DNA of 64,000 nucleotides from a virus. Of the stretch, positions 3,843 to 59,256 are shown one piece after another (position 1 is the first letter of the stretch; each line of letters starts with the position of its first letter). The DNA is taken from the IMG/VR virus record IMGVR_UViG_3300010218_000006, positions 1 through 64,000 of that record; one strand, written 5' to 3'. Made by a program: the position numbers and the translations under genes. The notes beneath the pieces were generated by a model. It searched no databases. It was not told the DNA's origin and saw only the letters and a list, made by a program, of their open reading frames with translations.

Positions 3843-5869
3843 TATACAAGCCCCACAGCATCTAGCAATGTGATCTTTGCATCAGAGCCGACAACCAAGT
3901 TAAAGTATTTATTAACTGCATTCACTGTAGGCCAATGTCCAATTTCCACGAAAGTAGTGGGGGATGCTACTGCGGCTACTTCAGCGTAAACGGCTGTACC
4001 AGAACGCCTAATACGGATGATATCACCTTCTGCTGGTGCTCTATTCGCTGTTACTGTGACAGGGCTTGCTGCCGCGCTTAACGAATAGCTCCCTGCTGTG
4101 ATTCCTAGATAGACCGCCATGTTACCGATTGGCTGATACGTCGGTCCGGTACTCTCCAAGCCGAACGCCATACCATTCCCGGAAACCTGCTCAAAGCGCA
4201 TGGACAGGGAACCGTCAACGCCAGACGCCCCCAAGGTCATGTTTGCACAAGCTTCTTGGTTAGTGAATGTACCTGCATTCGTACCTGTATAAGTGTATGG
4301 ACCTGTACCTGTCTCGGTGAGGCCAGTCTTAGATACAAATCTCGGGTAAGAACTTGCTATTGGCGTGACACTATTTGAAGCTGGCGACGGTGTAGATGTA
4401 CCTATTGCATTGGTTGCGGTTGCTGTAAACGTATAAGCCGACCCATTTGTCAAACCAGAGACAGTAATCGGACTTGTTGTTCCCGTTCCAGTAAAGCCCC
4501 CCGGAGATGAAGTTATTGTGTATCCTGTAATAGCACTACCTCCGTTTGAAGGTGCGGTGAACGCCACACTTGCTGAAGAATCTCCAGCAGTAGCTGTTGG
4601 TGCTGACATTTGAGCTGGAGCCGATGCTGCTGCAAATACATTGTTTGTTACACTTACGGGTCCAAAGGATGCTACTGCGTTTCCTGCGGGGTCTGCCAAC
4701 TTACTTGTTCCGGGTTGTGTATAACTTACAGTAATTGTGTCGCCTTGCGCGTAGGCCGAATTAGCGGTAACTGAAACTATACTTCCGCTAATAGAGACAG
4801 AGCTTGCAGTTTTTCCACCACTTAAAGTAAACGAAGATGCCGCAGGTAAGGTTGCGCCCAGTGCCTCGCTCATCGTAATTTGGACGACAGTTGGGCTGGT
4901 ATTTGCAACCTGAGCACTGACAAATGTTGGAGGCGTTGAATCAACAGCTTGTACATTATCGGTGATTGCTAGAGTAAATCCAGCCATCTCATTGCCAGAC
5001 GGGTCTTTAAGATTGTTTGTCCCATCCGGGGTGTACGTAACGTTGACGGCCTCCCCGTTTACAAAAGCTGTTGAGGTAACAAGTCTGACGGTATTTGTGC
5101 TAATAGTGGTGCTACTTATCGGGTGACCCGGTATAGTGAATGTACTGCTTGGTGGATTAGTTGTTGCATCCAATGTTTCAGACATTGTGACGATAATAAG
5201 CGTAGGCGTTGCGTTCTCTACAGTCGCAGTGGAGGCCGTCGGAGCCACTACGTCGATAGCCACAGCATTCACTGCCTGCGTTATAAAATACCACGTATCG
5301 TAACCATCATTAAAAAACTGGACGATGTTAACAATTCCGTTTCGGTTGTCATAACCAGACGAGCCGCCGTATTCTGTCATGCCTGTAAAGGTTGGGGTAT
5401 GCACTCCGTCTGCTACGAGCCTTACATAAACAGAGGCACCTTTTATTGGGCTTGCAGCTACAGTAAATGACAGCACAGAGCTTACAACCTGCTGCGGCAT
5501 GTAGCGATTTCCGTTGGCAGTAAGCGGTACTGTAGAAGAAAAACTAATATCATCTACTGTAAAAAACTTCGCAATCTGGCATGAAGGCAGCGTTACAAAC
5601 ACGCTTTTTTGCCCAGCAGGGAAAGTCACTGCCAAGCCTGCATTGGAGCTGCTTAATACACTTTGTCTGGACAGTGTAACAGAGTCTGTAAGCGTGTATG
5701 TCCCAATTTCCCAGTTTCCAGCAACATCTGCGACACAAACCGGAATGCTTGAAGTACCAGTTGATAGCGAAGATGCGAATGCCCTTGCGCCTGTAACTGC
5801 ACCAAAGAGCGTTATAGTTGTTGTATTTGTTACACTGCTTGTTTCTTCAACACGGTCTGCATAAATCAT
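3842..5869 (-). CDS. fibre-like protein with tandem Ig-like repeats, an FN3 domain and a C-terminal beta-sandwich
   Basis: 675 aa. It has two repeats of about 95 aa (ATPTLIIVTMSE.../TSPTVVQITMSE...), an FN3-like segment (APTATAGDSSASVAFTAPSNGGSAITGYTI...) and a fibre-type N-terminus. Confidence 0.6.
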   Translation of the reverse strand: MIYADRVEETSSVTNTTTITLFGAVTGARAFASSLSTGTSSIPVCVADVAGNWEIGTYTLTDSVTLSRQSVLSSSNAGLAVTFPAGQKSVFVTLPSCQIAKFFTVDDISFSSTVPLTANGNRYMPQQVVSSVLSFTVAASPIKGASVYVRLVADGVHTPTFTGMTEYGGSSGYDNRNGIVNIVQFFNDGYDTWYFITQAVNAVAIDVVAPTASTATVENATPTLIIVTMSETLDATTNPPSSTFTIPGHPISSTTISTNTVRLVTSTAFVNGEAVNVTYTPDGTNNLKDPSGNEMAGFTLAITDNVQAVDSTPPTFVSAQVANTSPTVVQITMSEALGATLPAASSFTLSGGKTASSVSISGSIVSVTANSAYAQGDTITVSYTQPGTSKLADPAGNAVASFGPVSVTNNVFAAASAPAQMSAPTATAGDSSASVAFTAPSNGGSAITGYTITSSPGGFTGTGTTSPITVSGLTNGSAYTFTATATNAIGTSTPSPASNSVTPIASSYPRFVSKTGLTETGTGPYTYTGTNAGTFTNQEACANMTLGASGVDGSLSMRFEQVSGNGMAFGLESTGPTYQPIGNMAVYLGITAGSYSLSAAASPVTVTANRAPAEGDIIRIRRSGTAVYAEVAAVASPTTFVEIGHWPTVNAVNKYFNLVVGSDAKITLLDAVGLV

Positions 5870-5885
5870 CTAATTACCGCCTCGT

Positions 5886-6308
5886 TTATGCGTCGGTTAA
5901 AACGCCATTTGTTTGGTCAAAGCCCACCGTAAATGTCTCTGATGGGCCGGGGGAGATACTTGCACCATAATCAGAGAAGCCGATCAACTCTTTGTTAGTT
6001 GCAGTGTCATTGTAAAGCACTGCGTAACGGAAGGGGCCGAAGCCCGTAGTAGCGGAGAACACGACATTGCTAATGACCAGCTTATATGTTCCAGAGGTCT
6101 GTGTTGAACTTACTTGGGCCGATACTGTACCTCCTGCCGTGTACCCTCCACCAGTTGCGAGGTCGATCAAATCCGCATAAACTGAGTTAGTTGCTACTGG
6201 TGCCGTATTTGTTAGCATCACCTTAAGCGTGTCGCTCGCTAGATTATGCACCTTCTCATTGACTGCTTTTGTAAAGCTATTAAACTTCTGAAAACTAGCT
6301 GCAGGCAT
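5886..6308 (-). CDS. hypothetical virion protein
   Basis: 140-aa ORF between the connector genes and the fibre gene. Confidence 0.45.
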   Translation of the reverse strand: MPAASFQKFNSFTKAVNEKVHNLASDTLKVMLTNTAPVATNSVYADLIDLATGGGYTAGGTVSAQVSSTQTSGTYKLVISNVVFSATTGFGPFRYAVLYNDTATNKELIGFSDYGASISPGPSETFTVGFDQTNGVLTDA

Positions 6309-6326
6309 GTTTGTCCTTGATAATTG

Positions 6327-6728
6327 TTATCGCCTTATATACAACTCGATCAATATTTGATCTGTTGCGTCAGGGGTAATTTCTTTGAATGTGAGAATGC
6401 GCCACAACACGCCGTTAATCTCCACCTTGTCTGCTGCTGGATTTACCACGAGTGCGACTGCTTCAGTGTCAGATTTGTTTGGAGGGCGAATATACAGTTG
6501 CTTGTCGCCACTTTGAATTAACGTGTTCGGTGCAACTGTCAAACCATTGCTGCGGAGATTCAAGTCCATCTGAATAGCCTTGACAGGAATGCTCAAATAA
6601 TTTACAGTGTTTGTTCCTGTAGACGGATCATATGCAGATGTTCCGTCAGGTTGCAGATAGGTGGCTGTAAAGCCAAACTCTTGCATGAACTCAGAAACAG
6701 CTCCGTCAAAATCTGAAAGGGCTGTCAT
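6327..6728 (-). CDS. head-tail adaptor / head closure protein
   Basis: 133-aa ORF with a 4-nt overlap to the upstream connector gene. Called from position and size. Confidence 0.4.
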   Translation of the reverse strand: MTALSDFDGAVSEFMQEFGFTATYLQPDGTSAYDPSTGTNTVNYLSIPVKAIQMDLNLRSNGLTVAPNTLIQSGDKQLYIRPPNKSDTEAVALVVNPAADKVEINGVLWRILTFKEITPDATDQILIELYIRR

Positions 6729-10404: not shown

Positions 10405-10929
10405 TTATTTAGCTTGATATTTATCTTCAAGAGCTTTCATAACTGCGCTCTTTTCAATAGTCTTGGAAGCATCTGCCTTAGCATCAACTCCAACGTCCTT
10501 AAACATTTCCGACTGTGCTTCTTGCTCAATCGATCCTGCCAGAGCAGAAACTACTGCCTCGAATGCTGCGTCTTCCATTCCTTCAGTTGCTGCCAGCAAT
10601 TTAGTAGCCTTGTCGTTTTCACCGATAGCAGCCATCACTTTCTCTTTACGAGCAGCAGCTTGTTTAGCTTTTGCATCGGCCACAAGAGCAGCCTTGGCAG
10701 ACTCAGTCTCTTGCATTGCAGCTTCAGCCTTGGCAACTTTCTCTGCCATTTCTGCCAGAGCACTTTGCAGGGTTTCCATTTCAGCAGTTTTAGAAGCGAG
10801 AGTTTCTTGTGCTTGCTTCAACTGTGCTGCCATTTGTTCATCAACAGCAGGAGTTGCTGCCTGCTTATCCTCTTTCTTCATTTCTTTGCTTCCTTTTTCA
10901 CCACTAAAAAATTTTTTAAACGCTCCCAT
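10405..10929 (-). CDS. scaffolding protein
   Basis: Ala/Glu/Lys-rich coiled-coil protein located after the protease. Start set at Met14, which has an AAGGAG RBS. Confidence 0.55.
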   Translation of the reverse strand: MGAFKKFFSGEKGSKEMKKEDKQAATPAVDEQMAAQLKQAQETLASKTAEMETLQSALAEMAEKVAKAEAAMQETESAKAALVADAKAKQAAARKEKVMAAIGENDKATKLLAATEGMEDAAFEAVVSALAGSIEQEAQSEMFKDVGVDAKADASKTIEKSAVMKALEDKYQAK

Positions 10930-11794
10930 CGGAGGCTCCTTTTGTTTGATCCAAGACGTACTGCACAAACTCTGAACGTGTCATGATCTTATTGATCAGT
11001 CCTAGATCAAGTGCATCTTGTGCCATGAAAGTCTTGGCTTCTGTCCCTTTAATTGTTTCGGGAGTCATTGCTGTGTACTGTGCAACGTGCGATACGAAAT
11101 CTTCGTACAGAGAATCTACTTTTGTCTGCAAATCTTCTAAGAACCCCTCTCTCCACGAGCCGTCTGCGGCGAAAGGTACTTTTGAGTCACCTGCTGTAAT
11201 GAATGTACGGGAGTAGCCTTCTTGCTCAAGGGCTTTGCTATCGTTGAGTAATGCTATCAACACGCCTATGCTGCCCGTTTCTGCGTAAGGATTTGACACT
11301 ACGATATCCGCAACACAGGCAAAAACATAGGCTGCACTTGCGCACAAACCGTCGTTGTAAGCAACTAGCATTACACCGGAGTCGTCACACATTTGGCGCA
11401 GTTCGTTGCTGCACTCAAAGGCTCCATATCCTTGCCCACCGCCTGAATCAATATTCAAAACAATAGTGTCTACACCTGCCTCAATCAGTTCTTCAGCTTG
11501 CTCAAGGATGCTTTCGTAAGAGCATCCAACTTTTCCACACAATCCATAAACAGGCTTGTAAGTAAGAGCGCCAGTAATATCGATAACGCCCACACCCATC
11601 TCTGGATCAAAGTCATCAATGTCGTCTGGTTCTTCGTCACCCTCGTCGTCATCACCAACATCAGGCATAACCATCAGGCCAACTTTGTTACGTTCTTTAA
11701 TAAATGCGGCAGCAAAATCAAAGGTTTTTTGATCCACTAAGTGAGGGGTGTTATAAAGGCTCACTAAGAGCCTATGTAGCGAGTGTGCTTTCAT
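10916..11794 (-). CDS. prohead protease, S49 (SppA/lambda gpC-like) family
   Basis: NIDSGGGQGYG...CASAAYVFAC...ETGSIGV motifs, located immediately after the portal gene. Confidence 0.75.
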   Translation of the reverse strand: MKAHSLHRLLVSLYNTPHLVDQKTFDFAAAFIKERNKVGLMVMPDVGDDDEGDEEPDDIDDFDPEMGVGVIDITGALTYKPVYGLCGKVGCSYESILEQAEELIEAGVDTIVLNIDSGGGQGYGAFECSNELRQMCDDSGVMLVAYNDGLCASAAYVFACVADIVVSNPYAETGSIGVLIALLNDSKALEQEGYSRTFITAGDSKVPFAADGSWREGFLEDLQTKVDSLYEDFVSHVAQYTAMTPETIKGTEAKTFMAQDALDLGLINKIMTRSEFVQYVLDQTKGASDGSV

Positions 11795-11808: not shown

Positions 11809-13317
11809 TTATTCTGCATTTTCGGTATTGGCAGCAGAGTTGTCTTGAGGGCTGACACTATTAGCGGTCCCATTCATACCCCCTGAAGGTGTATTCAAGC
11901 TGTCCCCAGATCGGCTTTGGGTATCCGTAAGCGTCATAGCGTCAACGTCCGGCGCTTCATCATCCCCTTTTGCCGGTACTCCCATAGCTTCTCTGACACG
12001 ATTCAAGATTGGCCTATCGACCTCGACTAATCCAACTGCTTTAACTCTCTGCAGGTACTTGCCCAGCTCATCTAGGGACACCTTCTCAATATCAGAGTAG
12101 ACGAATTTAGGCAGTCTCTCAGTGCTCCAGCCGTTCATTTCGTACAGGCTGCGCATCAAGTCCATATTAAGAACTTCAGCGATTTCTTTAAGCCTGTAAT
12201 CGATAGCAAGGGCAAGAATGCTTGTCTTGGCATCTGCGAGAGAGAAACTTCCTGTGCCGTCCGCGCCCATTTTGAGCACATCGACGGAAAGCGCCGAAAG
12301 AATGTCATTCTGAAGCCGCTTAATAACCGCCTCAGTGTCAATCTTCGGAGTGCCCCTATCAGACATCAACTCATACTTAAACAAATTGAGCTTAGACTCA
12401 GGATCAATCATGTTAGGGACTAACAAGCCCCTAGACGTTCCTGCGTTATAATTGTTGATGATTGTCTGGAAAGCGGATACTACAGCCTTGTCCTCTGCAC
12501 TTGCATTCGGGTCAAGATACTTAGGGGGAATCTCAATCTTGAGAATTCCTTGCACATCTTTTGCAATAGAAAGGAGTTCTTGGTCTGCCAGAAGGGACAA
12601 TTGTTTGAAAGCCAAATATATGGGCTTCAAAATTGAATTTCCTTCTGGATTCCCTTTAGTGCCTGAGCACGTAAAAAGTAGAAACTTCTCACGAGGAATC
12701 TCGATCAGTCCCCGTTCATTTGTCCTATTAAGGAACCTAGCGCCGTTTTCAAGGTACTGTAGATTTTGCTCTACACGGATAAGGTCTGCACCATCTTCGG
12801 AGAACACCCAACGGGAAATTGTCTCTTGACTTCTGACTGGCAGCTTCTTGATGCCTACCAACCCATCGTTCCATCTGCTCCCATTGCGCTTCAGACGCCT
12901 ACGGAATACTTTCTCATTTACTGAGAATCCGTATTCAAGGTAGGGTATAATGCTTTCAATGAAATTGCCCCAACTCTGTTCCATGTCGTCCATCATCGTC
13001 TTGACAATGGCTGCTCGTTCTTTTTCTTGCTCTGTGGCATCGGAAGGGGGTTGAACGTCCCATTCGACACGAGAAAGAAGTAAACGATAGATGGTTAGGG
13101 CTGCACCCACTGTGGGGTTGTTCCGCATCTCGTTAATGGTGCGGATAAATTGCGGGTAGCGGAACGCTAGGACAGGTTCTTCCCAAATGAATCCGTTGCG
13201 TGTTTTCAGGCCAAGAAAGCCTTGTTCGCCTAAAGAGATTCGTGGAATAACTGCTGAAGGATCGGGTTGAAGTGCTGCAGGAAGACCGCCATCCGGCGAT
13301 TGATCTGCTGATGGCAT
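11809..13317 (-). CDS. portal protein
   Basis: About 503 aa, between the terminase and protease genes. Start moved to the ATG at 13317, which has an RBS and lies downstream of the promoter at 13345-13373. Confidence 0.7.
   Translation of the reverse strand: MPSADQSPDGGLPAALQPDPSAVIPRISLGEQGFLGLKTRNGFIWEEPVLAFRYPQFIRTINEMRNNPTVGAALTIYRLLLSRVEWDVQPPSDATEQEKERAAIVKTMMDDMEQSWGNFIESIIPYLEYGFSVNEKVFRRRLKRNGSRWNDGLVGIKKLPVRSQETISRWVFSEDGADLIRVEQNLQYLENGARFLNRTNERGLIEIPREKFLLFTCSGTKGNPEGNSILKPIYLAFKQLSLLADQELLSIAKDVQGILKIEIPPKYLDPNASAEDKAVVSAFQTIINNYNAGTSRGLLVPNMIDPESKLNLFKYELMSDRGTPKIDTEAVIKRLQNDILSALSVDVLKMGADGTGSFSLADAKTSILALAIDYRLKEIAEVLNMDLMRSLYEMNGWSTERLPKFVYSDIEKVSLDELGKYLQRVKAVGLVEVDRPILNRVREAMGVPAKGDDEAPDVDAMTLTDTQSRSGDSLNTPSGGMNGTANSVSPQDNSAANTENAE
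12911..12927. repeat. TTCTCA-N5-TGAGAA motif variant inside portal CDS
   Basis: TTCTCATTTACTGAGAA. Confidence 0.7.
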
Positions 13318-13344
13318 ATTTATTTCCTTTTTTAATTGAGTGCT

Positions 13345-13373
13345 ATTATACCACAATAGTTGTGTTTTGTCAA
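13345..13373 (-). promoter_or_regulatory. consensus sigma70-type promoter TTGACA-N17-TATAAT
   Basis: The minus strand reads TTGACAAAACACAACTATTGTGGTATAAT, about 30 nt upstream of the portal ATG. Confidence 0.7.
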
Positions 13374-13434
13374 GAGTTTTGACTAAAAATGTCAAGTTTC
13401 ATATTTTCAATATGCTGTTTGCCACTTTCGTAGC

Positions 13435-15882
13435 CTATATTGACACGATAGGTGATGCTTGGGACATGTCTGGTAGGGAGAATGTTGGGATGGTGATTTG
13501 ACGAGCTAATGTAGAAAATGCGTCAGAAGTCGCATCCACCTGATCGTCCTTTTGAGTACGCAATCCACTAAACTCCTCAAGTTCATTGAAGAATGCCTCG
13601 TTCCAATCCCCTCTTACAATCCTCACAGAGCCGCTTTCCGCTAATGCAGAGAATGGCTTAAATCTTGTCACTTTACCACTATGCCCTGAAATGCTACATG
13701 TTCTTGCAGGAACACCGTGCTCTGCTAATACTCTCAGGTAGAAGGCATTAGCTGTCTTTCCTGCTGCTCCGGGGTCCATAGGAATTGTGACATGACACTC
13801 CTCAATGCCGTCTGCAAGTGCAACGTCCACCACAGTTTTAAGAACCTTGTCAGTTCTTGCTCTGAACCTTACAACATCTTCTATATAGTAGATGCCATAC
13901 TTATCCCGACTCATCTTGACACCAACCGTCCAGTCGGGGTTGGGCAAAGCTGCGCTTACCTCACTGCCTGCAAAGTCCCAAGACCTTACACGAGAGATCG
14001 GGTTGTCAGGAGGAAAATCCACGACAGGTGTCCATTCCCTTTTGAAATAACCCGCACCAGATTCTTTGGCTGTCCAACTCCCATGCAGGTATTTAAGCTG
14101 GTTAACTTTAGGCTGCGCCAACAAGTTTGCCAAGTACGATGTATTTCTTGGAGGCAACAAATACGGATTGTCGAATACTCCAGTAGGAATAAAACGAAAG
14201 GATTTGGGCATGCAAAGACGTAGACGTTCTTCTTTAGTGAAGTTCATCATCTCTTGCTCAGTCATTCCGTGAGCATAAATCATGTTGCGTGGCTTACCGT
14301 ATAACTCAAACACTTCCTCAGGAGAGTTCCCCCAATGTGCCTTGTTATCAATAACGATAAACCATCTAATTCTGTGCTCAGTGCCCTCTACAGGGACTCC
14401 CGTCTCGGGGTCTAGGCAGAACTCAACCCAGTTTTTCAGAAAAGAATTGATGTCTGGATTCGCAGTCAGGATCAGTTGAGGATGAATCTTTGAGTGTGCG
14501 GATCGGATACGAGAGAGTAAAAATAGGATTTGATGTTCTGTCCATTTGTCTGCAGCTTCGTCTACGAGGGCGCGAACTAGCTGTGATCCTTGCCAAGAGC
14601 CTAGGTCGTCGTCGCAGGCAATTGCGGAGAAGCTAATAACAGCCCCAGATTTAAAATCCCACTTGAGAGCCTGTGACTTGAACTCCCCGCCAAAATCTGT
14701 ATATACCTGCTTGCTCTCATCCACTAAACCGCCTTGGCGAGTGAGTTCTGGCCGAGTTCTACGGAAGATAGTACAGCGAAAATTAGGGTCGTGGATGCCG
14801 TCTAAGTTTTTAGTAAGGCACGTAAAACTGTTGTGGGTTACAATAAAATCTGTTGTTACAAACAGTTTCTCGCTACCAGATATGGAAATGCAGGTAGCAA
14901 AGTCTTTTCCAACGGGATGTATGTCGCTAATCCTGTTACCAACACCTTTTGGACGGCAACGGGAAACTTTCCTACTCAAGCGAAACAACCTTGCAGAGTC
15001 TTCTCCGCGTATATAGAGCTTATATACCTTGCTGCAAAATACCCTTTCTCCGTCTTTTTTATAACTTCCGATTTTTGTTGTCTGTGTTACTGTGTAACCT
15101 AAGCTCCTGAGAAGATAAGTGACTCCCATAGCTAGTTCTTCAGATGTTGTATCAAAAAAGGTCTTACCGGCAGAAGACACATACCCGTCTGTGTCCATTA
15201 AACCTTGGACGATACTGAACCTGTCTTCTACAGAAGCTTCAAGATATTGCTTTGGAATAAACTTAGTTTGGGATAGACTCCCATTCAGGCCCAACTCTCT
15301 TAGTTGCGGTGAAATTCCTATTACGGTCCTACTTATGGCCTTGTTTGCTGCTCGATTTTTTATTTGAGGCTTACCCAACTGGTAGCCTGCAGTTTCTATT
15401 GACCTGAATATATCGTCATCCATAGATGTCATCTGGCAGCTTCCGTTTACAGAGATATATCCATCTCCAAGAGCGCAGCCCAGCACATACGGATCGATTG
15501 GTAGGTAACTTTTTTTGCCAAATTCAACCGGCTTTACTACTGGTGTAATAGGTAGGTTTTTCCTTTTCCCTGACTTTTTGGCATTCTCTCTACGTACTTT
15601 ACTAAGCAGTTCTAAAGTAGTTTTTACTTTAGTGGCTGACTTTCCTCTACCGGCTTCGTGGTATTGCCACAAGTGCTCTCCGCAGCAGTCTATGGTTCTA
15701 CCATCTTGGAACGTGACTCTATAAATGTCAACGATTCCTTGAGGCCATACGTTCTCAACTTTTTCAACATTGTTGGAGGGAGTTACAACTAAGTCTCCGA
15801 CCTTAATATCCTCAATGTTAATGAATCCGCTAGGAGTTAATACTTTTTCACCATGCCGTAGCGCCTTACCACCCCCGGCTCC
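13435..15882 (-). CDS. terL: terminase large subunit, exon 2 (contains intein)
   Basis: After intein removal the sequence reads GAGGGK|SFT (Walker A), LVDEAAD (Walker B) and LTANPD, followed by a nuclease domain. The ATG called at 15885 is intron sequence. Confidence 0.85.
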   Translation of the reverse strand, partial: GAGGGKALRHGEKVLTPSGFINIEDIKVGDLVVTPSNNVEKVENVWPQGIVDIYRVTFQDGRTIDCCGEHLWQYHEAGRGKSATKVKTTLELLSKVRRENAKKSGKRKNLPITPVVKPVEFGKKSYLPIDPYVLGCALGDGYISVNGSCQMTSMDDDIFRSIETAGYQLGKPQIKNRAANKAISRTVIGISPQLRELGLNGSLSQTKFIPKQYLEASVEDRFSIVQGLMDTDGYVSSAGKTFFDTTSEELAMGVTYLLRSLGYTVTQTTKIGSYKKDGERVFCSKVYKLYIRGEDSARLFRLSRKVSRCRPKGVGNRISDIHPVGKDFATCISISGSEKLFVTTDFIVTHNSFTCLTKNLDGIHDPNFRCTIFRRTRPELTRQGGLVDESKQVYTDFGGEFKSQALKWDFKSGAVISFSAIACDDDLGSWQGSQLVRALVDEAADKWTEHQILFLLSRIRSAHSKIHPQLILTANPDINSFLKNWVEFCLDPETGVPVEGTEHRIRWFIVIDNKAHWGNSPEEVFELYGKPRNMIYAHGMTEQEMMNFTKEERLRLCMPKSFRFIPTGVFDNPYLLPPRNTSYLANLLAQPKVNQLKYLHGSWTAKESGAGYFKREWTPVVDFPPDNPISRVRSWDFAGSEVSAALPNPDWTVGVKMSRDKYGIYYIEDVVRFRARTDKVLKTVVDVALADGIEECHVTIPMDPGAAGKTANAFYLRVLAEHGVPARTCSISGHSGKVTRFKPFSALAESGSVRIVRGDWNEAFFNELEEFSGLRTQKDDQVDATSDAFSTLARQITIPTFSLPDMSQASPIVSI
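14830..15864 (-). mobile_element. intein (345 aa) with LAGLIDADG homing endonuclease, class 3 signature
   Basis: It starts ALRHGEKVLTPSG after Walker A Lys and ends VTHN|S. Two LAGLIDADG motifs are present (LGCALGDGYI, IVQGLMDTDGYV), as is the Trp(B12)-Cys(F4)-Thr(G5) triad. Confidence 0.85.
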
Positions 15883-16139
15883 CATTATTTTCGAGTAATC
15901 TCGCTACAATTACTCCGCTTTCGCTGCTGCAATTTAGTTTTTATATTTGCAGATAAGACTATATCTTCGCTTCTTGTTTAAGAAGGACTCCCGTTTCCAC
16001 TCGCTTGAGTGTACGGCTCGCGCCTAGTCGTTGAACGTTATTCTCAGGATTGAGAATCTTCGCTGCTGGTTATCTTTCTCAAGACTTTCCAGCAATTAGA
16101 GAGTTGTTTTTTACCCTTGGAGGCAGATTAGTGTTGTTT
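15883..16139 (-). mobile_element. group I intron (ORF-less, IA-like) in terminase large subunit gene
   Basis: The P, Q, R and S core elements, the P1 guide pairing with U.G at the 5' splice site, and a terminal G are all present. Splicing restores an in-frame P-loop. Confidence 0.85.
16041..16056. repeat. TTCTCA-N4-TGAGAA motif copy (forms intron P6)
   Basis: TTCTCAGGATTGAGAA on the plus strand. This is the same duplex 16-mer as at 16496 and 30780, in inverted orientation. Confidence 0.9.
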
Positions 16140-16223
16140 ACCACCAAGCAGGATGACATCTGTTGTGTTATCCGTTAAAAATAGCCGCTGTTTTTCCGAC
16201 GCGGGACCGTAAATCTTACTCAT
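16140..16223 (-). CDS. terL: terminase large subunit, exon 1 (28 codons)
   Basis: AAGGAG RBS followed by the ATG at 16223. The exon encodes MSKIYGPASEKQRLFLTDNTTDVILLGG and ends in the T that pairs with the intron guide G. Confidence 0.8.
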
Positions 16224-16354
16224 AAGCAACTTTCTCCTTGTTTCAAAATAACCTCCTCATAGGTTTGTTAATGATTTTAAAGGAGCACAATCAGGATTAC
16301 TGAGGAGGTTGTCTTGGAGGAGACTCCCGATCATGCTGCTTTAAAACCACTTCA

Positions 16355-16392
16355 AACAAAAAGCCCCGCTCAGACTTAATCCAAACGGGGCT
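16355..16392 (-). terminator. terminator-like hairpin with T-tract
   Basis: The minus strand reads AGCCCCG-N17-CGGGGCT followed by TTTTGTTT. Confidence 0.5.
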
Positions 16393-16495
16393 GTCTGCAA
16401 GGACGTACCTTGCAGGAAATGACGAAATTCTTGCATAGGCGGCACGCTCCCTTCCCCTATGACCCGCCAAAGCATTCTCTTTGGCCTCTCCACTA

Positions 16496-16511
16496 TTCTC
16501 AATCCTGAGAA
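16496..16511. repeat. TTCTCA-N4-TGAGAA motif copy
   Basis: TTCTCAATCCTGAGAA, 3 nt downstream of the stop of 16515..16865. Confidence 0.9.
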
Positions 16512-16514
16512 ATC

Positions 16515-16865
16515 TTAATCCAACGTCCTAACCGTAGTAAAATCAACTATCGGCCTTTTAGACCCTTCGTCAGACTCTACAAGCCTCCCATTACTGCCGC
16601 CCTTAACAAGCTTCAACTCTGCCACCATACGCTGAATCTTATCCGCATTAATCTTCTCTGTAACATCAATATGAAAGTCTAGCAGCTTCGTAGCAGCCGT
16701 CAGACGAATCTTCTCATCCTCGCTGTGCATACACTTAAGCAACACATCTACAGCCTCTATGGACGCCTTATCCAACGCCTTGAGCAGCTTTTTCAGCTTA
16801 ATCTCATCTTGCGTAAAACTGATGTCATCCTTGATTACAAGTAGTTGAGAGCTATTATTGCTCAT
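16515..16865 (-). CDS. terminase small subunit candidate
   Basis: 116-aa helical ORF, the first gene after the late promoter and immediately upstream of terL. Assigned by position only. Confidence 0.35.
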   Translation of the reverse strand: MSNNSSQLLVIKDDISFTQDEIKLKKLLKALDKASIEAVDVLLKCMHSEDEKIRLTAATKLLDFHIDVTEKINADKIQRMVAELKLVKGGSNGRLVESDEGSKRPIVDFTTVRTLD

Positions 16866-18167: not shown

Positions 18168-18932
18168 ATGAGTCGAAATGCGTCGCGGATGCGCAAAAAG
18201 GAGCCAATGGTTGCAGACAAGGCTGTAGTTACAAAAGCTAAGTTTGCTGATGCTAACGAGGGTAAGTTAAAAAGTTTCACCCCAACGCCTTCACAAAAAG
18301 AACTGATAAACACAATCCGTGCCAACGTACTTACTTGGGTAGACTCTCCAGCCGGTAGTGGCAAAAGTTCAACAATCCTGTGGCACTTTGCTAAAGAGTA
18401 TTTGGTAGATCATTCAAAACATATTATTGTTGTACGTACTCCTGTTGAATTCTGTGATGACAAGATTGGGTACTTGCCAAACTCCTTGGAAGCTAAACTA
18501 GAAGTGCATTTTGCGTCTTCCAAGAAGATTCTTGAAGATTTTCTCGGGAAAGGGAGAGTTGCTGCTGATATGGACCAGAGAATTCATTTCAAGATTCCGA
18601 ACTACCTGCTCGGCTCTACTTTAGATAACGCTCTCGTTCTTATCGACGAGGCACAACAGCTTTCTCCGCAAATTCTGAAGCTACTACTAGAACGTATCGG
18701 GAAGAACAGCACGGTTGTTGTGGCGGGAGACTCAAATCAATTGTTTGACGCCAAAGGTAAGCGGAATGGCTTGGCTGATGCAATCGAGCGATTCTTTAAA
18801 TTTGAAGATGGTTGGGTTATTCCTAAATATGAGAATATTGGATACCACGAGTTCTCTATCTCTGAAATCATGCGGTCTGAGATTTGTAAGACGGTTGTTA
18901 CTGCATACAGTGGAATGAAAGGTGGTATTTAA
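18168..18932 (+). CDS. phoH: PhoH-like ATPase
   Basis: Walker A SPAGSGKS, Walker B VLIDEAQQ, and a PhoH-type GDSNQ motif. Confidence 0.8.
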   Translation: MSRNASRMRKKEPMVADKAVVTKAKFADANEGKLKSFTPTPSQKELINTIRANVLTWVDSPAGSGKSSTILWHFAKEYLVDHSKHIIVVRTPVEFCDDKIGYLPNSLEAKLEVHFASSKKILEDFLGKGRVAADMDQRIHFKIPNYLLGSTLDNALVLIDEAQQLSPQILKLLLERIGKNSTVVVAGDSNQLFDAKGKRNGLADAIERFFKFEDGWVIPKYENIGYHEFSISEIMRSEICKTVVTAYSGMKGGI

Positions 18933-53230: not shown

Positions 53231-53276
53231 TTTTTGGAACGTGAAGAAGCTGTGAAGGCTGCTTAAGGGAGGGTTG

Positions 53277-55400
53277 ATGAGTTCGGTTCAGGGATGGTGT
53301 TTCGACTGGGAGGGGGATGACCTCTACTTGCTCGCAACAAAAGCATGGTATGGGAGATTCACATCCTTAGATAAAACTAGGACGATGTGTATCTACCCAT
53401 TCCGTGAAGGTATTGAAGAAACGTACAATAAAATTTACGAATGGGTTCACAGCTTCCCTGACGGGGCATTGGTGGTTGGGCATAATATTCTCGGGTACGA
53501 TCTATTCTTGCAATGGAAGCTGTTTGGAGTAAAGCCACGATTTGGAAAGAAAGGTAGTGACTGGCTTCTTGACAAGCCTGTGCAATTTGTGGACACACTT
53601 TATTTGTCAATGTTCATATCGCCCGATCTTCCTTTTCATTCACTAGAATACCTGTCAAAAGGTACGACAGACGAAAAGATAAACTATCGACAGAAACTGA
53701 TTGATGAAGGTGCGCTGCCGGCGGATGCCCCGAAAGGTGCTGAATTTAAATTCTATCATCCGTTCATGGACACCTATTGCGACGCTGACGTTCTTGCAAA
53801 TATTGGTATCTTCTGGACTTGGTGGAATCGTGCTAAAGAGTTGTACGGCGATGACTGGCTTCACAGCTCTTATAAATGTGGGCAAAAAAGTTTCGCACTC
53901 ATGAAGGCGCAGGAATTTACCGGCGTCGTATTTGACCGCGAGCTTGGTAAAGAACTTGTAGTGAGACTCAAAAACGACCTTGAAGAAATCTCAGCAAATG
54001 TTCTTCCGCAACTTCCTCCGCGCCCATTGAAGAAAGGTGAAGAGTCCGATTATTCAATGCCAGCGAAGCCCTATAAAAAGGATGGCAGCTACAGTAGCCA
54101 CATGCTCAACTTCATTTCAAAGCATAGCGGTATCGACAAGGGGGACGGTGTTGTAGAGTTTTATGGTGAGGATTATAAAGTCGAGCCAAAGAAGTTGCTC
54201 AATGTAAAACTTCCTATGGAGATGAAAGACCAATCTGCCTTCAAAGACTGGCTTCTTGAACAGGGTTGGAGGCCATCATTCTGGAATATCAAACGTGGAA
54301 CGGATGGAAAGCCTCTCCGTGATCCGAAGACAAAGAAAGTAATTGAGACTTCACCTAAATTGCAAGAAGCTGGCAGGTTGTGCCCATCTCTTGAAGAACT
54401 GGATGGCCCATTGGTGAAGGAAGTTGTACGTTACCTTAGCTTGAAAAATCGTCTTGGTGTATTAGAGGGGTGGCTGAACAACTGGAGGCTTGACTGGGAT
54501 GGGTGTATCGCTCAACAAACCACAGGGATTACACCCACACATAGGCAATGCCACGCAGTTTTGGTGAATGTCCCGAAGGCGCAAGACGGTGTGCATTACG
54601 GTAAAGAGTTTAGAAGCTTGTTTGGGGTTGACAAAGGAGAGGTACAAGTAGGTATTGACTGTGCTGCTGGAGAAGCTAGGTGCGAAGGCCATTACACGTT
54701 CAAATATGATGGTGGGGCATATGCCGCAGAGCTTCTGAAAGGTGACATTCATTCCAAGAATGCTAAAACATTCTACCCTGTTGAAACAAAGGATATTGAC
54801 ATCTTCGCTTCTGACTTTGATAAGGATAGTAAGGTTTTTAAGCCGTTCCGTTCTAAGAGCAAGAACGGGAAATATGCCCTGACATTTGGATGCAGTTATC
54901 CGAAGCTTGCAAAGACTCTTGGAAAACCTGAACATGAGGGCAAGCCGTTGTATGAGCAGTTCTGGCTGGATAACGAAGCTCTTGGTAAGTTAAAGGAGGC
55001 TGTTGAGAAATACTATGAGACAACAGGGATGAAAAAGCAGGTTCCAGCGATTGATGGGCGATTCTTGATGGTGAGGTCAAAGCACTCGTTGATTAATCTG
55101 CTGTTCCAAAGCTGCCTTGGTATCCTGATGGAATACGTTTGCTGTTTGTTCGATCAAGCAATGGGAGAGATGGAGATTGATGAACGTGGACGACCATACT
55201 ACCTTTACAAAGGGGGGTATATTGTGAAACGTAGAACATTTAGTCACGACGAACTTCAGGTTAGCTGTCCTCCTGAGATTGCTGATGAGATTGGACAACT
55301 CGTAGCAAATGCTATTACGAAGGCTGGAAAACTGTTGAAGATTGCTGTGACAATGGAAGGGGAGTACAAAATTGGAAGAAACTGGTGTGAAACACATTAA
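53277..55400 (+). CDS. family A DNA polymerase with 3'-5' exonuclease domain
   Basis: Exo I FDWEGD, motif A DCAAGEAR, motif B KNGKYALTFG, motif C SHDEL, and the C-terminal GRNWCETH typical of Pol I-type enzymes. Confidence 0.85.
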   Translation: MSSVQGWCFDWEGDDLYLLATKAWYGRFTSLDKTRTMCIYPFREGIEETYNKIYEWVHSFPDGALVVGHNILGYDLFLQWKLFGVKPRFGKKGSDWLLDKPVQFVDTLYLSMFISPDLPFHSLEYLSKGTTDEKINYRQKLIDEGALPADAPKGAEFKFYHPFMDTYCDADVLANIGIFWTWWNRAKELYGDDWLHSSYKCGQKSFALMKAQEFTGVVFDRELGKELVVRLKNDLEEISANVLPQLPPRPLKKGEESDYSMPAKPYKKDGSYSSHMLNFISKHSGIDKGDGVVEFYGEDYKVEPKKLLNVKLPMEMKDQSAFKDWLLEQGWRPSFWNIKRGTDGKPLRDPKTKKVIETSPKLQEAGRLCPSLEELDGPLVKEVVRYLSLKNRLGVLEGWLNNWRLDWDGCIAQQTTGITPTHRQCHAVLVNVPKAQDGVHYGKEFRSLFGVDKGEVQVGIDCAAGEARCEGHYTFKYDGGAYAAELLKGDIHSKNAKTFYPVETKDIDIFASDFDKDSKVFKPFRSKSKNGKYALTFGCSYPKLAKTLGKPEHEGKPLYEQFWLDNEALGKLKEAVEKYYETTGMKKQVPAIDGRFLMVRSKHSLINLLFQSCLGILMEYVCCLFDQAMGEMEIDERGRPYYLYKGGYIVKRRTFSHDELQVSCPPEIADEIGQLVANAITKAGKLLKIAVTMEGEYKIGRNWCETH

Positions 55401-59181: not shown

Positions 59182-59256
59182 CTCTCGTTAGCTCAGCGGA
59201 ATTAGAGCAACGGGTTTCTACTCCGTAGGTCGTAAGTTCGAATCTTACACGAGAGG
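59182..59256 (+). tRNA. tRNA-Arg (anticodon UCU); CCA encoded at 59257-59259
   Basis: Hand-folded cloverleaf: acceptor CTCTCGT/ACGAGAG, D stem GCTC/GAGC, anticodon stem ACGGG/TCCGT with loop TTTCTAC, and T arm GTAAG-TTCGAAT-CTTAC. Confidence 0.9.

Follow-up and report, generated by a model that had tools for sequence, protein, structure and literature searches.

A group I intron without an open reading frame in the Walker A codons of a phage large terminase gene, six codons from a predicted class-3-type intein

The stretch analysed here (the window) comprises the 64,000 nucleotides (nt) at positions 1 to 64,000 of the IMG/VR virus record IMGVR_UViG_3300010218_000006, from a roughly 82-kb uncultured tailed phage. 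On its minus strand, the gene for the large terminase subunit (TerL) is interrupted within the codons of its Walker A motif by a 257-nt group I intron without an open reading frame (ORF); an intein lies between the Walker A Lys and Ser, 18 nt (six codons) downstream of the intron site. The best reading of this arrangement, and very probably the right one, is that the intron would be removed by RNA splicing and the intein would then be excised from the protein, the splicing and its chemistry being read from sequence. The parts of the gene are as follows:

16234..16239, minus strand: AAGGAG ribosome-binding site, 10 nt ahead of the ATG at 16223 (sequence)
16140..16223, minus strand: TerL exon 1, 28 codons (84 nt), MSKIYGPASEKQRLFLTDNTTDVILLGG; its last base, U16140, is at the predicted 5′ splice site
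15883..16139, minus strand: group I intron, 257 nt, no ORF (Rfam RF00028, covariation, fold)
13435..15882, minus strand: TerL exon 2, beginning GGA GCC GGG GGT GGT AAG (GAGGGK) (frame, domains, homologue alignment)
14830..15864, minus strand: intein of 345 amino acids (aa) with a LAGLIDADG endonuclease domain, ALRHGEKV...IVTHN (Pfam, homologue alignment)

The ORF listing for this region gives an 816-aa ORF (13435..15885, minus strand) with the N-terminus MGAGGGK, and no ORF of at least 60 aa between 15885 and 16515, where the largest are 57 and 53 aa. This agrees with an earlier annotation made from the letters alone (the sequence-only reading), which had remarked on an ORF beginning at the edge of Walker A with 630 nt upstream empty of such ORFs, and had proposed that the AAGGAG and the ATG at 16223 open an 84-nt exon, after which the frame meets stops; the sequence bears this out as well. 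Past the 5′ splice site the exon 1 frame reads KQH and then stops, at an in-frame UAA (16130-16128) three codons into the intron. This UAA, which is not conserved in the related intron of L082, would halt ribosomes ahead of the ribozyme core. The public annotation of the source contigs (JGI 3300010224 and 3300010383) lists exon 1 as an ORF by itself, 31 aa long.

Splicing at U16140|A16139 and G15883|G15882 would join CTT GGT GGT in frame to GGA GCC GGG GGT GGT AAG, with the predicted RNA junction ...CTTGGTGGT|GGAGCCGGG... and the ligated 40-mer GATGTCATCCTGCTTGGTGGTGGAGCCGGGGGTGGTAAGG. By conceptual translation, taking out the 257 nt leaves an 844-aa product, and subtracting the 345-aa intein leaves 498 aa. 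This spliced extein matches Terminase_6N (PF03237) at 35.7 bits (cut-off 22) over residues 26-300, a match that starts inside exon 1, and Terminase_6C (PF17289) at 66.2 bits (cut-off 22.6); the predicted protein is of the Terminase_6 type, with an N-terminal ATPase domain and a C-terminal RNaseH-like nuclease domain. A phmmer search of PDB sequences with the spliced extein gave no match at E<=0.01.

Comparison with homologues carries much of the argument. A search of a collection of 5.8 billion proteins yielded 1450 relatives, and N-termini were surveyed in the 120 best clusters. The top match, P0001, is an uninterrupted protein of 499 aa (93% identity, 100% coverage) that reads ...TDVILLGGGAGGGKSFTCL; its stretch MGKVYGPASEKQRLFLTDNTTDVILLGGGAGGGKSFTCLTKNLDG is residue-for-residue colinear with both predicted junctions, that of the intron and that of the intein, and its N-terminus agrees with the exon 1 peptide at 26 of 28 positions. 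Intact N-termini are found in about 69 of the 120 clusters (P0001 and about 68 others), and the predicted protein, ...DVILLGG|GAGGGK|SFTCL..., has the sequence of uninterrupted homologues. The sequence-only reading had expected an in-frame ILLGG|GAGGGK junction that rebuilds the P-loop, and had suggested aligning the 498-aa product to intron-less homologues: the product is colinear with them, and the junction equals theirs. Protein colinearity alone would fit a junction shifted by one base (16141|15883) too; the junction given above is preferred because only that pair gives a U before the 5′ site and a G at the intron end.

Other entries lack this N-terminus, beginning with MGAGGGK (P0009, P0014, P0019, P0061, P0070, P0076, P0116) or with LGAGGGK, MAGGGK or MGGK. 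Homologues genuinely starting MGAGGGK had been named in advance as evidence against a split gene, and none appeared: in all eight contigs fetched for such truncated entries, intron sequence lies directly upstream of the truncated ORF. The Rfam group I model scores there are 89.6 bits in L082, 73.4 in L087, 66.7 in L088, 66.6 in L085 and 62.7 in L084; L086 has a homologous intron under the cut-off, L081 ends inside the intron, and L083 has the 3′ half only. A complete intron with exon 1 in the expected frame is present in six of the eight (not L081 or L083). Because an intron lies upstream of each one fetched, the MGAGGGK-starting database entries are annotation artefacts and not counter-examples. 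The ATG at 15885-15883 closes the intron and is no start codon, as the sequence-only reading had it and as the intact homologues and the introns upstream of the "truncated" ones agree; on this comparison the true TerL start is supported as the predicted ATG at 16223.

Two other accounts of the locus bear on the same evidence. That the intron is a dead relic, TerL being either the 816-aa ORF from the ATG at 15885 or a pseudogene, and exon 1 a meaningless small ORF, would accord with the public gene calls (separate 31-aa and 816-aa ORFs) and with the many database homologues that "start" MGAGGGK. It is nonetheless very improbable: the exon 1 peptide matches the P0001 N-terminus at nearly every position and its ribosome-binding site is kept, a start at 15885 would remove the strand leading into the P-loop together with the first Gly of GxxxxGKS, and the truncated homologues have a matching intron upstream. 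The intron helices, moreover, are kept by compensatory changes across relatives (see below), which would not be expected in a decaying relic. It is scarcely credible that a chimeric assembly join has placed intron sequence ahead of TerL. One related contig, L083, does look chimeric, its PolA ORF stopping at motif C and running into the 3′ half of a TerL-type intron, but in the window a complete intron lies between both exons, three contigs of about 82 kb (two shown, from two samples) share an identical 816-aa ORF together with the ORFs ahead of it, and the six related contigs with a complete exon 1-intron-exon 2 arrangement come from different samples.

The intron itself was examined by a covariance-model scan, which the sequence-only reading had proposed as a check. 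Rfam Intron_gpI (RF00028), whose gathering score is 50, matches 16149..15939 (minus strand) at 61.0 bits (E = 5.2e-13) and over the full model (1-253 of 253). A permissive scan of the whole 64-kb window (E<=0.1) found no second intron, the only other match being a tRNA at 59182-59256. The minimum free energy fold, calculated without prior information, has an energy of -75.7 kcal/mol, which 0 of 200 shuffles equal (z = -3.3), and finds P4, P5, P6/P6a, P7, P7.1, P7.2, P8, P9 and P9.2 unaided. The structural elements are:

16116..16148, minus strand: P1, exon CUUGGUGGU (16148-16140) paired with guide GCCUCCAAG (16124-16116) (pairing count; U.G in 10/10 relatives)
15987..16104, minus strand: P3, ACUCUC (16104-16099) with GGGAGU (15992-15987) (100% paired, 5/6 pairs compensatory)
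16064..16094, minus strand: P4 (16094-16089/16069-16064) around P5 (16085-16081/16076-16072, GAGA loop) (alignment pair count)
16035..16063, minus strand: P6, GCG/CGU (16063-16061/16037-16035), and P6a, AUUCUCA/UGAGAAU (16057-16051/16046-16040) (pairing, alignment)
15957..16029, minus strand: P7 pseudoknot, GACUA (16029-16025) with UAGUC (15961-15957), in the R and S elements (100% paired)
15998..16024, minus strand: P7.1, GGC[GCGA]GCC (16024-16015), and P7.2, CACUC[AAGC]GAGUG (16011-15998), between P7 and P3′ (8/8 pairs covary)
15970..15985, minus strand: P8, CUUCUU[AAAC]AAGAAG (pairing, alignment, fold)
15895..15952, minus strand: 3′ peripheral domain, with P9 (15952-15927), a GC[GAAA]GC hairpin (15924-15917) and P9.2 (15913-15895) (alignment, fold)

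P1 has nine positions, with a U16140.G16124 wobble at the splice site and one internal U.U; P3 surrounds P4-P6 plus the 5′ strand of P7. The tail after P9.2 is ...GAAAAUAAUG, ending at the terminal G15883. The window intron has no P2, a hairpin that follows P1 in four relatives. The longest ORF touching it is 26 aa, so that there is no intron-encoded homing endonuclease.

Most of this had been drawn by eye in the sequence-only reading. Its P, Q, R and S strings (16097-16085, 16071-16062, 16036-16023 and 15967-15956), its guide TGCCTCCAAG (16125-16116) and its final G15883 proved exact, and every pairing that it listed forms. Two details need revision: its IA-like insertion between P7 and P3′ stands, but consists of two hairpins (P7.1 and P7.2) where it had one; and the pairing ATTCTCA/TGAGAAT that it called P6 does form, but is the extension P6a, closed by a 3-bp P6 (GCG/CGU). 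Hairpins P7.1 and P7.2 in this position are said, in a scheme that reportedly goes back to Michel and Westhof in 1990, to define subgroup IA, the usual phage type. By these hairpins, and by the likeness of its core to other phage introns in blastn searches, the window intron is predicted to belong to subgroup IA (phage IA2-like). Translational bypassing or frameshifting over the gap was also considered, and is ruled out by its length of 257 nt, by stops in all frames and by the full ribozyme core.

Nine complete related introns, all ORF-less and 231-258 nt long, were recovered from related metagenomic phage contigs: six (L082, L084-L088) from contigs of the truncated-TerL relatives and three (L013, L018, L042) from IMG/VR TerL loci. 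Seven of the nine reach the Rfam cut-off, at 52-90 bits. They were aligned with the window intron, with 10-11 nt of exon on each side (in order: window, L082, L086, L018, L085, L087, L084, L088, L042, L013). RNAalifold finds 57 pairs in this ten-intron alignment, 38 of them with compensatory changes. When the canonical group I structure with its P7 pseudoknot is imposed, 91.3% of cells pair, against 36-44% in a control with the 3′ partners slid by 1-3 columns; 45 of 63 pairs are changed on both sides, including pairs in P1/guide, P3 and P7, and 0 of 500 shuffles reach any of the pairing measures. Since the aligned introns are related, the shuffle control overstates significance, while the slid control and the distinct pair types are unaffected by this.

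P3, P4, P6 and P7 are 100% paired across the ten introns. Both strands of P7 have changed together in three relatives, from GACUA/UAGUC to GAUCA/UGAUC, and among relatives P4 has switched from GCUGG/CCAGC to CGGUG/UACCG. The P7.1 loop is of GNRA type in most of the ten (GCGA in the window), and the P7.2 loop has a conserved AAG. All ten have a U.G pair at their 5′ splice site and end in G, and the distal P1 pairs covary with the exon, the guide differing where the exon differs:

Window: exon CUUGG, guide CCAAG
L086: exon AUUGG, guide CCAAU (C-G to A-U)
L018: exon AUGG, guide CCAU (UUGG/CCAA to AUGG/CCAU)
L087: exon GCGG, guide CCGC

A few points weigh against a self-splicing group I intron. 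By eye, P10 has at best three pairs in the window (U.G, C-G, U-A) and fewer in L082, and P1 contains its internal U.U. The covariance score alone is no clean criterion: at the gathering score, Rfam matches only L013 and L042 among all 80 IMG/VR TerL loci, and L018 and L086, clear family members by alignment, fall under it, as does L083. Because these three are missed, the Rfam cut-off undercounts this intron family. Finally, some phage group I introns splice in vivo and not in vitro (PMC11878797), so that the intron might be lost from the RNA during infection and yet not be strictly "self-splicing". An intron that is removed in vivo but depends on a phage or host protein, or on passage of the ribosome, and is not autocatalytic alone, is indeed the least improbable of the alternatives to the reading favoured here, if still quite unlikely. 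The Bastillevirinae offer precedents in the phiAGATE polymerase, terminase and ribonucleotide reductase (RNR) introns and the SIOphi polymerase intron, which are spliced in infection and not in vitro (PMC11878797), and the lack of P2 and the weak P10 would fit; the core, on the other hand, is complete, compact and strongly covarying, and the sequence-related phiNIT1 RNR intron self-spliced in vitro (PMC11878797).

The second interruption lies in the same motif. The intein matches LAGLIDADG_3 (36.3 bits) and Hom_end (31 bits), both over their cut-offs, and Hint_2 at 21.5 bits, under the cut-off of 28.4. Its first residue (Ala1) and the His-Leu-Trp of block B (..GEHLW..) are invariant in 16 of 16 aligned intein sequences; the ATCI of block F and the VTHN of block G, followed by Ser or Thr, are invariant in the 15 with a complete C-terminus. 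Homologues without the intein read GGGK|SFTCL at this site. Class 3 inteins have no nucleophile at position 1 and instead a Trp(B12)-Cys(F4)-Thr(G5) triad (PMC5050341). By this WCT signature the window intein is of class-3 type, and is predicted to splice. It resembles described P-loop class 3 inteins in lying between the Walker A Lys and a Ser or Thr, in its Ala1 and in its Trp-Cys-Thr triad (PMC5050341, PMC2807308); the extein nucleophile here is Ser. In mycobacteriophage TerL, the Lys|Thr position is the "classic P-loop insertion" site in terminase_1 proteins, while the sole terminase_6-like site in that survey is in the C-motif (PMC5050341, PMC2807308); the window intein, by contrast, is in the P-loop of a terminase_6-type TerL.

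Among the TerL relatives, P0017 and P0043 have mini-inteins (154 and 148 aa) without endonuclease. Inteins 33-39% identical to that of TerL are found in PhoH-like P-loop ATPases on many phage contigs, as well as in proteins whose Pfam domains are of helicase or RecA type (P0129, P0138-P0236). The PhoH gene of the window (18168-18932) has no intein.

Maturation of TerL might then proceed as follows. The minus-strand transcript would contain exon 1 (16223..16140), intron (16139..15883) and exon 2 (15882..13435). The intron would fold into a core of P1 and P3-P9 with P7.1 and P7.2, its guide pairing with the last nine bases of exon 1. An external guanosine would cleave after U16140 and the freed 3′-OH would attack after G15883, ligating ...CUU GGU GGU|GGA GCC GGG GGU GGU AAG in frame. 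Translation from AUG 16223 would give the 844-aa precursor, from which self-removal of the class-3-type intein would restore the Walker A sequence GGAGGGKS in a 498-aa TerL.

The related introns do not all occupy the same position. With intron sites marked ^ and the intein marked * in L-L-G-G^G^A-G^G-G-K*S, the DNA-verified sites are:

Site A (reference), GG|GAGGGK: window, L082, L086, L018
Site C (+3 nt), GGG|AGGGK: L085, L087 (L087 also with intein)
Site B (+9 nt), GGGAG|GGK: L084, L088, and the equivalent GSAG|AGKS in L042
Site X (about 35 codons downstream), ...SQAG|GLFQ: L013, with the exon end GCGGGU as at site B

All confirmed sites are in phase 0 after a GGU codon, and A, B and C fall within 9 nt in the Walker A codons. 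Each intron has a guide that fits the site it occupies, and ORF starts suggest two sites more. This staggered-site intron family, with DNA-confirmed sites in TerL Walker A codons, is new here. ORF starts among the 120 best clusters (17 xGAGGGK, 12 xAGGGK, 4 xGGK and 1 xGK) indicate that about 28% are probably interrupted within Walker A. The start of P0131 (MGGGKA...) suggests a further site at +6 nt. Other ORFs begin (L)TKNLDG, RRTEPEL or (L)IDESK (P0047, P0080, P0086, P0089, P0095, P0097-P0099, P0101, P0105, P0110), which suggests extra interruption sites 3′ of the P-loop; L013 confirms one such site.

Site A holds two intron lineages: the cores of the window and L082 introns are 80% identical, and those of L086 and L018 81%, the latter two being only 60% identical to the window. 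From P9 to its 3′ end the window intron most resembles that of L084 at site B (71%, vs 59% with L082). Together these observations point to recombination between introns or to site switching. In L001, which is intron-less, site A reads GGC GGC|GGC, against GGT GGT|GGA in the window.

About 5 of 19 alleles with the intein have an intron, vs about one third of the intein-free ones, and all four combinations of intron and intein are seen. These allele counts give no support for tight intron-intein linkage. Hitch-hiking of the intron on intein homing was considered, and is kept as a low-probability lead, introns not being enriched among intein-bearing alleles. It was considered too that an intron at site B, only 9 nt away from the intein, might exclude it; no allele with both was seen, in numbers far too small to conclude anything, and the idea was set aside.

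Because the intron has no endonuclease gene, its spread would have to rely on a trans-acting factor or on reverse splicing. Reverse splicing might occur into GGU-ending targets matched by the short guide. As a second possibility, the LAGLIDADG enzyme of the intein, encoded 18 nt away, might act in trans through co-conversion, in a "collaborative homing" of intein and intron. As a third, neighbouring free-standing endonucleases might mobilise the intron in trans. That the TerL Walker A region is a hotspot for one ORF-less intron family, moving between sites and genomes without an endonuclease of its own, is a doubtful proposition for now: the staggered sites are observed, and any mechanism of mobility is speculation.

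Free-standing candidate endonuclease genes occur beside TerL in two relatives. In L086 a 307-aa ORF (1272-2195) immediately precedes exon 1; it matches T5orf172/MUG113 (GIY-YIG-like) and the zinc-finger families DUF723/DUF4379. In L084 an ORF containing NUMOD3 (5501-6407) follows the gene for the portal. Beside the window TerL there is no such ORF.

Terminase genes with group I introns are already known, as is a gene that holds both an intron and an intein. A terminase intron has been on record since phage LL-H (Mikkonen & Alatossava 1995, as cited in PMC4299906): as in the window, it is of group I, splits the gene for a phage large terminase and is spliced out of the RNA (predicted, in the window), but the phage lineage and the terminase family are different. 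The Bacillus phages Moonbeam, SIOphi and phiAGATE have TerL introns as well (PMC4299906, PMC11878797), with splicing demonstrated (PMC11878797); those of the Bastillevirinae are IA-type, spliced in vivo and, for SIOphi, in vitro, and TerL is interrupted in 5 of 52 genomes, in some by two or three introns (PMC4299906, PMC11878797). Of 45 Bastillevirinae introns, however, 32 contain a homing endonuclease ORF and the average length is about 800 nt, whereas the window intron is ORF-less at 257 nt; nor is an intein reported to adjoin their TerL introns, like that found 18 nt from the intron here.

By blastn, the nearest introns in cultured phages are those of the Nitunavirus (phiNIT1-like) RNR large subunit and the phiKZ gp72/73 region; these and other phage introns are 70-75% identical to the window intron over the P3-P7/P8 core. 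They belong to the same broad phage IA assemblage, but interrupt other host genes, and only the core aligns (45-64% of the query), the P1 and P9 parts being unrelated. Splicing of the phiNIT1 rNDPL intron has been shown in vitro (PMC11878797). The SPbeta nrdE gene contains an intron and an intein (PMC3653736) and is, like the window TerL, an essential phage gene interrupted at both the RNA and the protein level; it is a different gene, and in the window the two elements are 18 nt apart within an 8-residue Walker A motif. A review that lists terminases among the usual targets of phage introns also covers collaborative (trans) homing, in which free-standing endonucleases act with ORF-less group I introns (PMC3984707). 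The window is similar in having an ORF-less intron at a conserved site with a candidate trans endonuclease nearby (the intein LAGLIDADG enzyme or, in a relative, the L086 ORF), a likeness that may serve as a lead and is not a finding.

Three things are particular here: the intron is ORF-less, it lies inside Walker A codons with a class-3-type intein six codons away, and it is one of a staggered-site family. In a full-text literature search, no paper brought together a group I intron, the terminase large subunit and Walker A, which is weak evidence of absence, and the text of PMC11878797 does not contain the terms Walker, P-loop or "insertion site".

TerL is a standard marker for phage taxonomy and for prediction of packaging mechanism. 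In this clade about one quarter to one third of database TerL entries appear to be N-terminally truncated by an unrecognised intron, with part of the P-loop missing: gene callers misread such an intron as a truncated gene, and the finding amounts to a corrected marker-gene model. An active packaging ATPase would here need splicing first of the RNA and then of the protein, at sites 18 nt apart in an 8-residue motif. The locus is a compact natural system in which to study the sharing of a target by selfish elements, and its staggered, endonuclease-free relatives form a comparative set for how ORF-less introns change sites. The principles of group I introns are unchanged; the finding adds details and no new principle.

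The surroundings of TerL in the window include:

16362..16392, minus strand: terminator-like hairpin and T run, after a 116-aa ORF and ahead of exon 1 (consensus scan; rate similar to that in shuffles)
11809-13395: Mu-type portal, downstream of TerL
10916-11794: S49 protease, downstream of TerL
18168-18932: PhoH-like ATPase, on the opposite strand to TerL

A Clp-like protease is also encoded on the opposite strand. The upstream 116-aa ORF has no Pfam match. Megablast of 13300-16700 against 50,697 phage records gave no match, and the genome has no close relative in culture; by tblastn, the nearest cultured TerL is that of Pseudomonas Pakpunavirus (PAK_P1, PA10), at 42%.

In L083 (Logan SRR22388220, 275-2512), residues 1-658 of a PolA ORF align to the window PolA (53274-55400), and the ORF ends exactly at motif C (..SMVH|DE). 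Beyond it come intron-like sequence that includes a P2 hairpin, the 3′ half of an intron of the TerL type, and then TerL exon 2. This is either a chimeric assembly through the shared intron, or a sign that the family is also present in polA motif C of a relative. The window PolA is uninterrupted. Arrays of tRNA genes lie just upstream of TerL in relatives (L001-L022 flanks), with up to about 20 in L010 and in L012/L022; the single tRNA of the window (59182-59256) is far from TerL.

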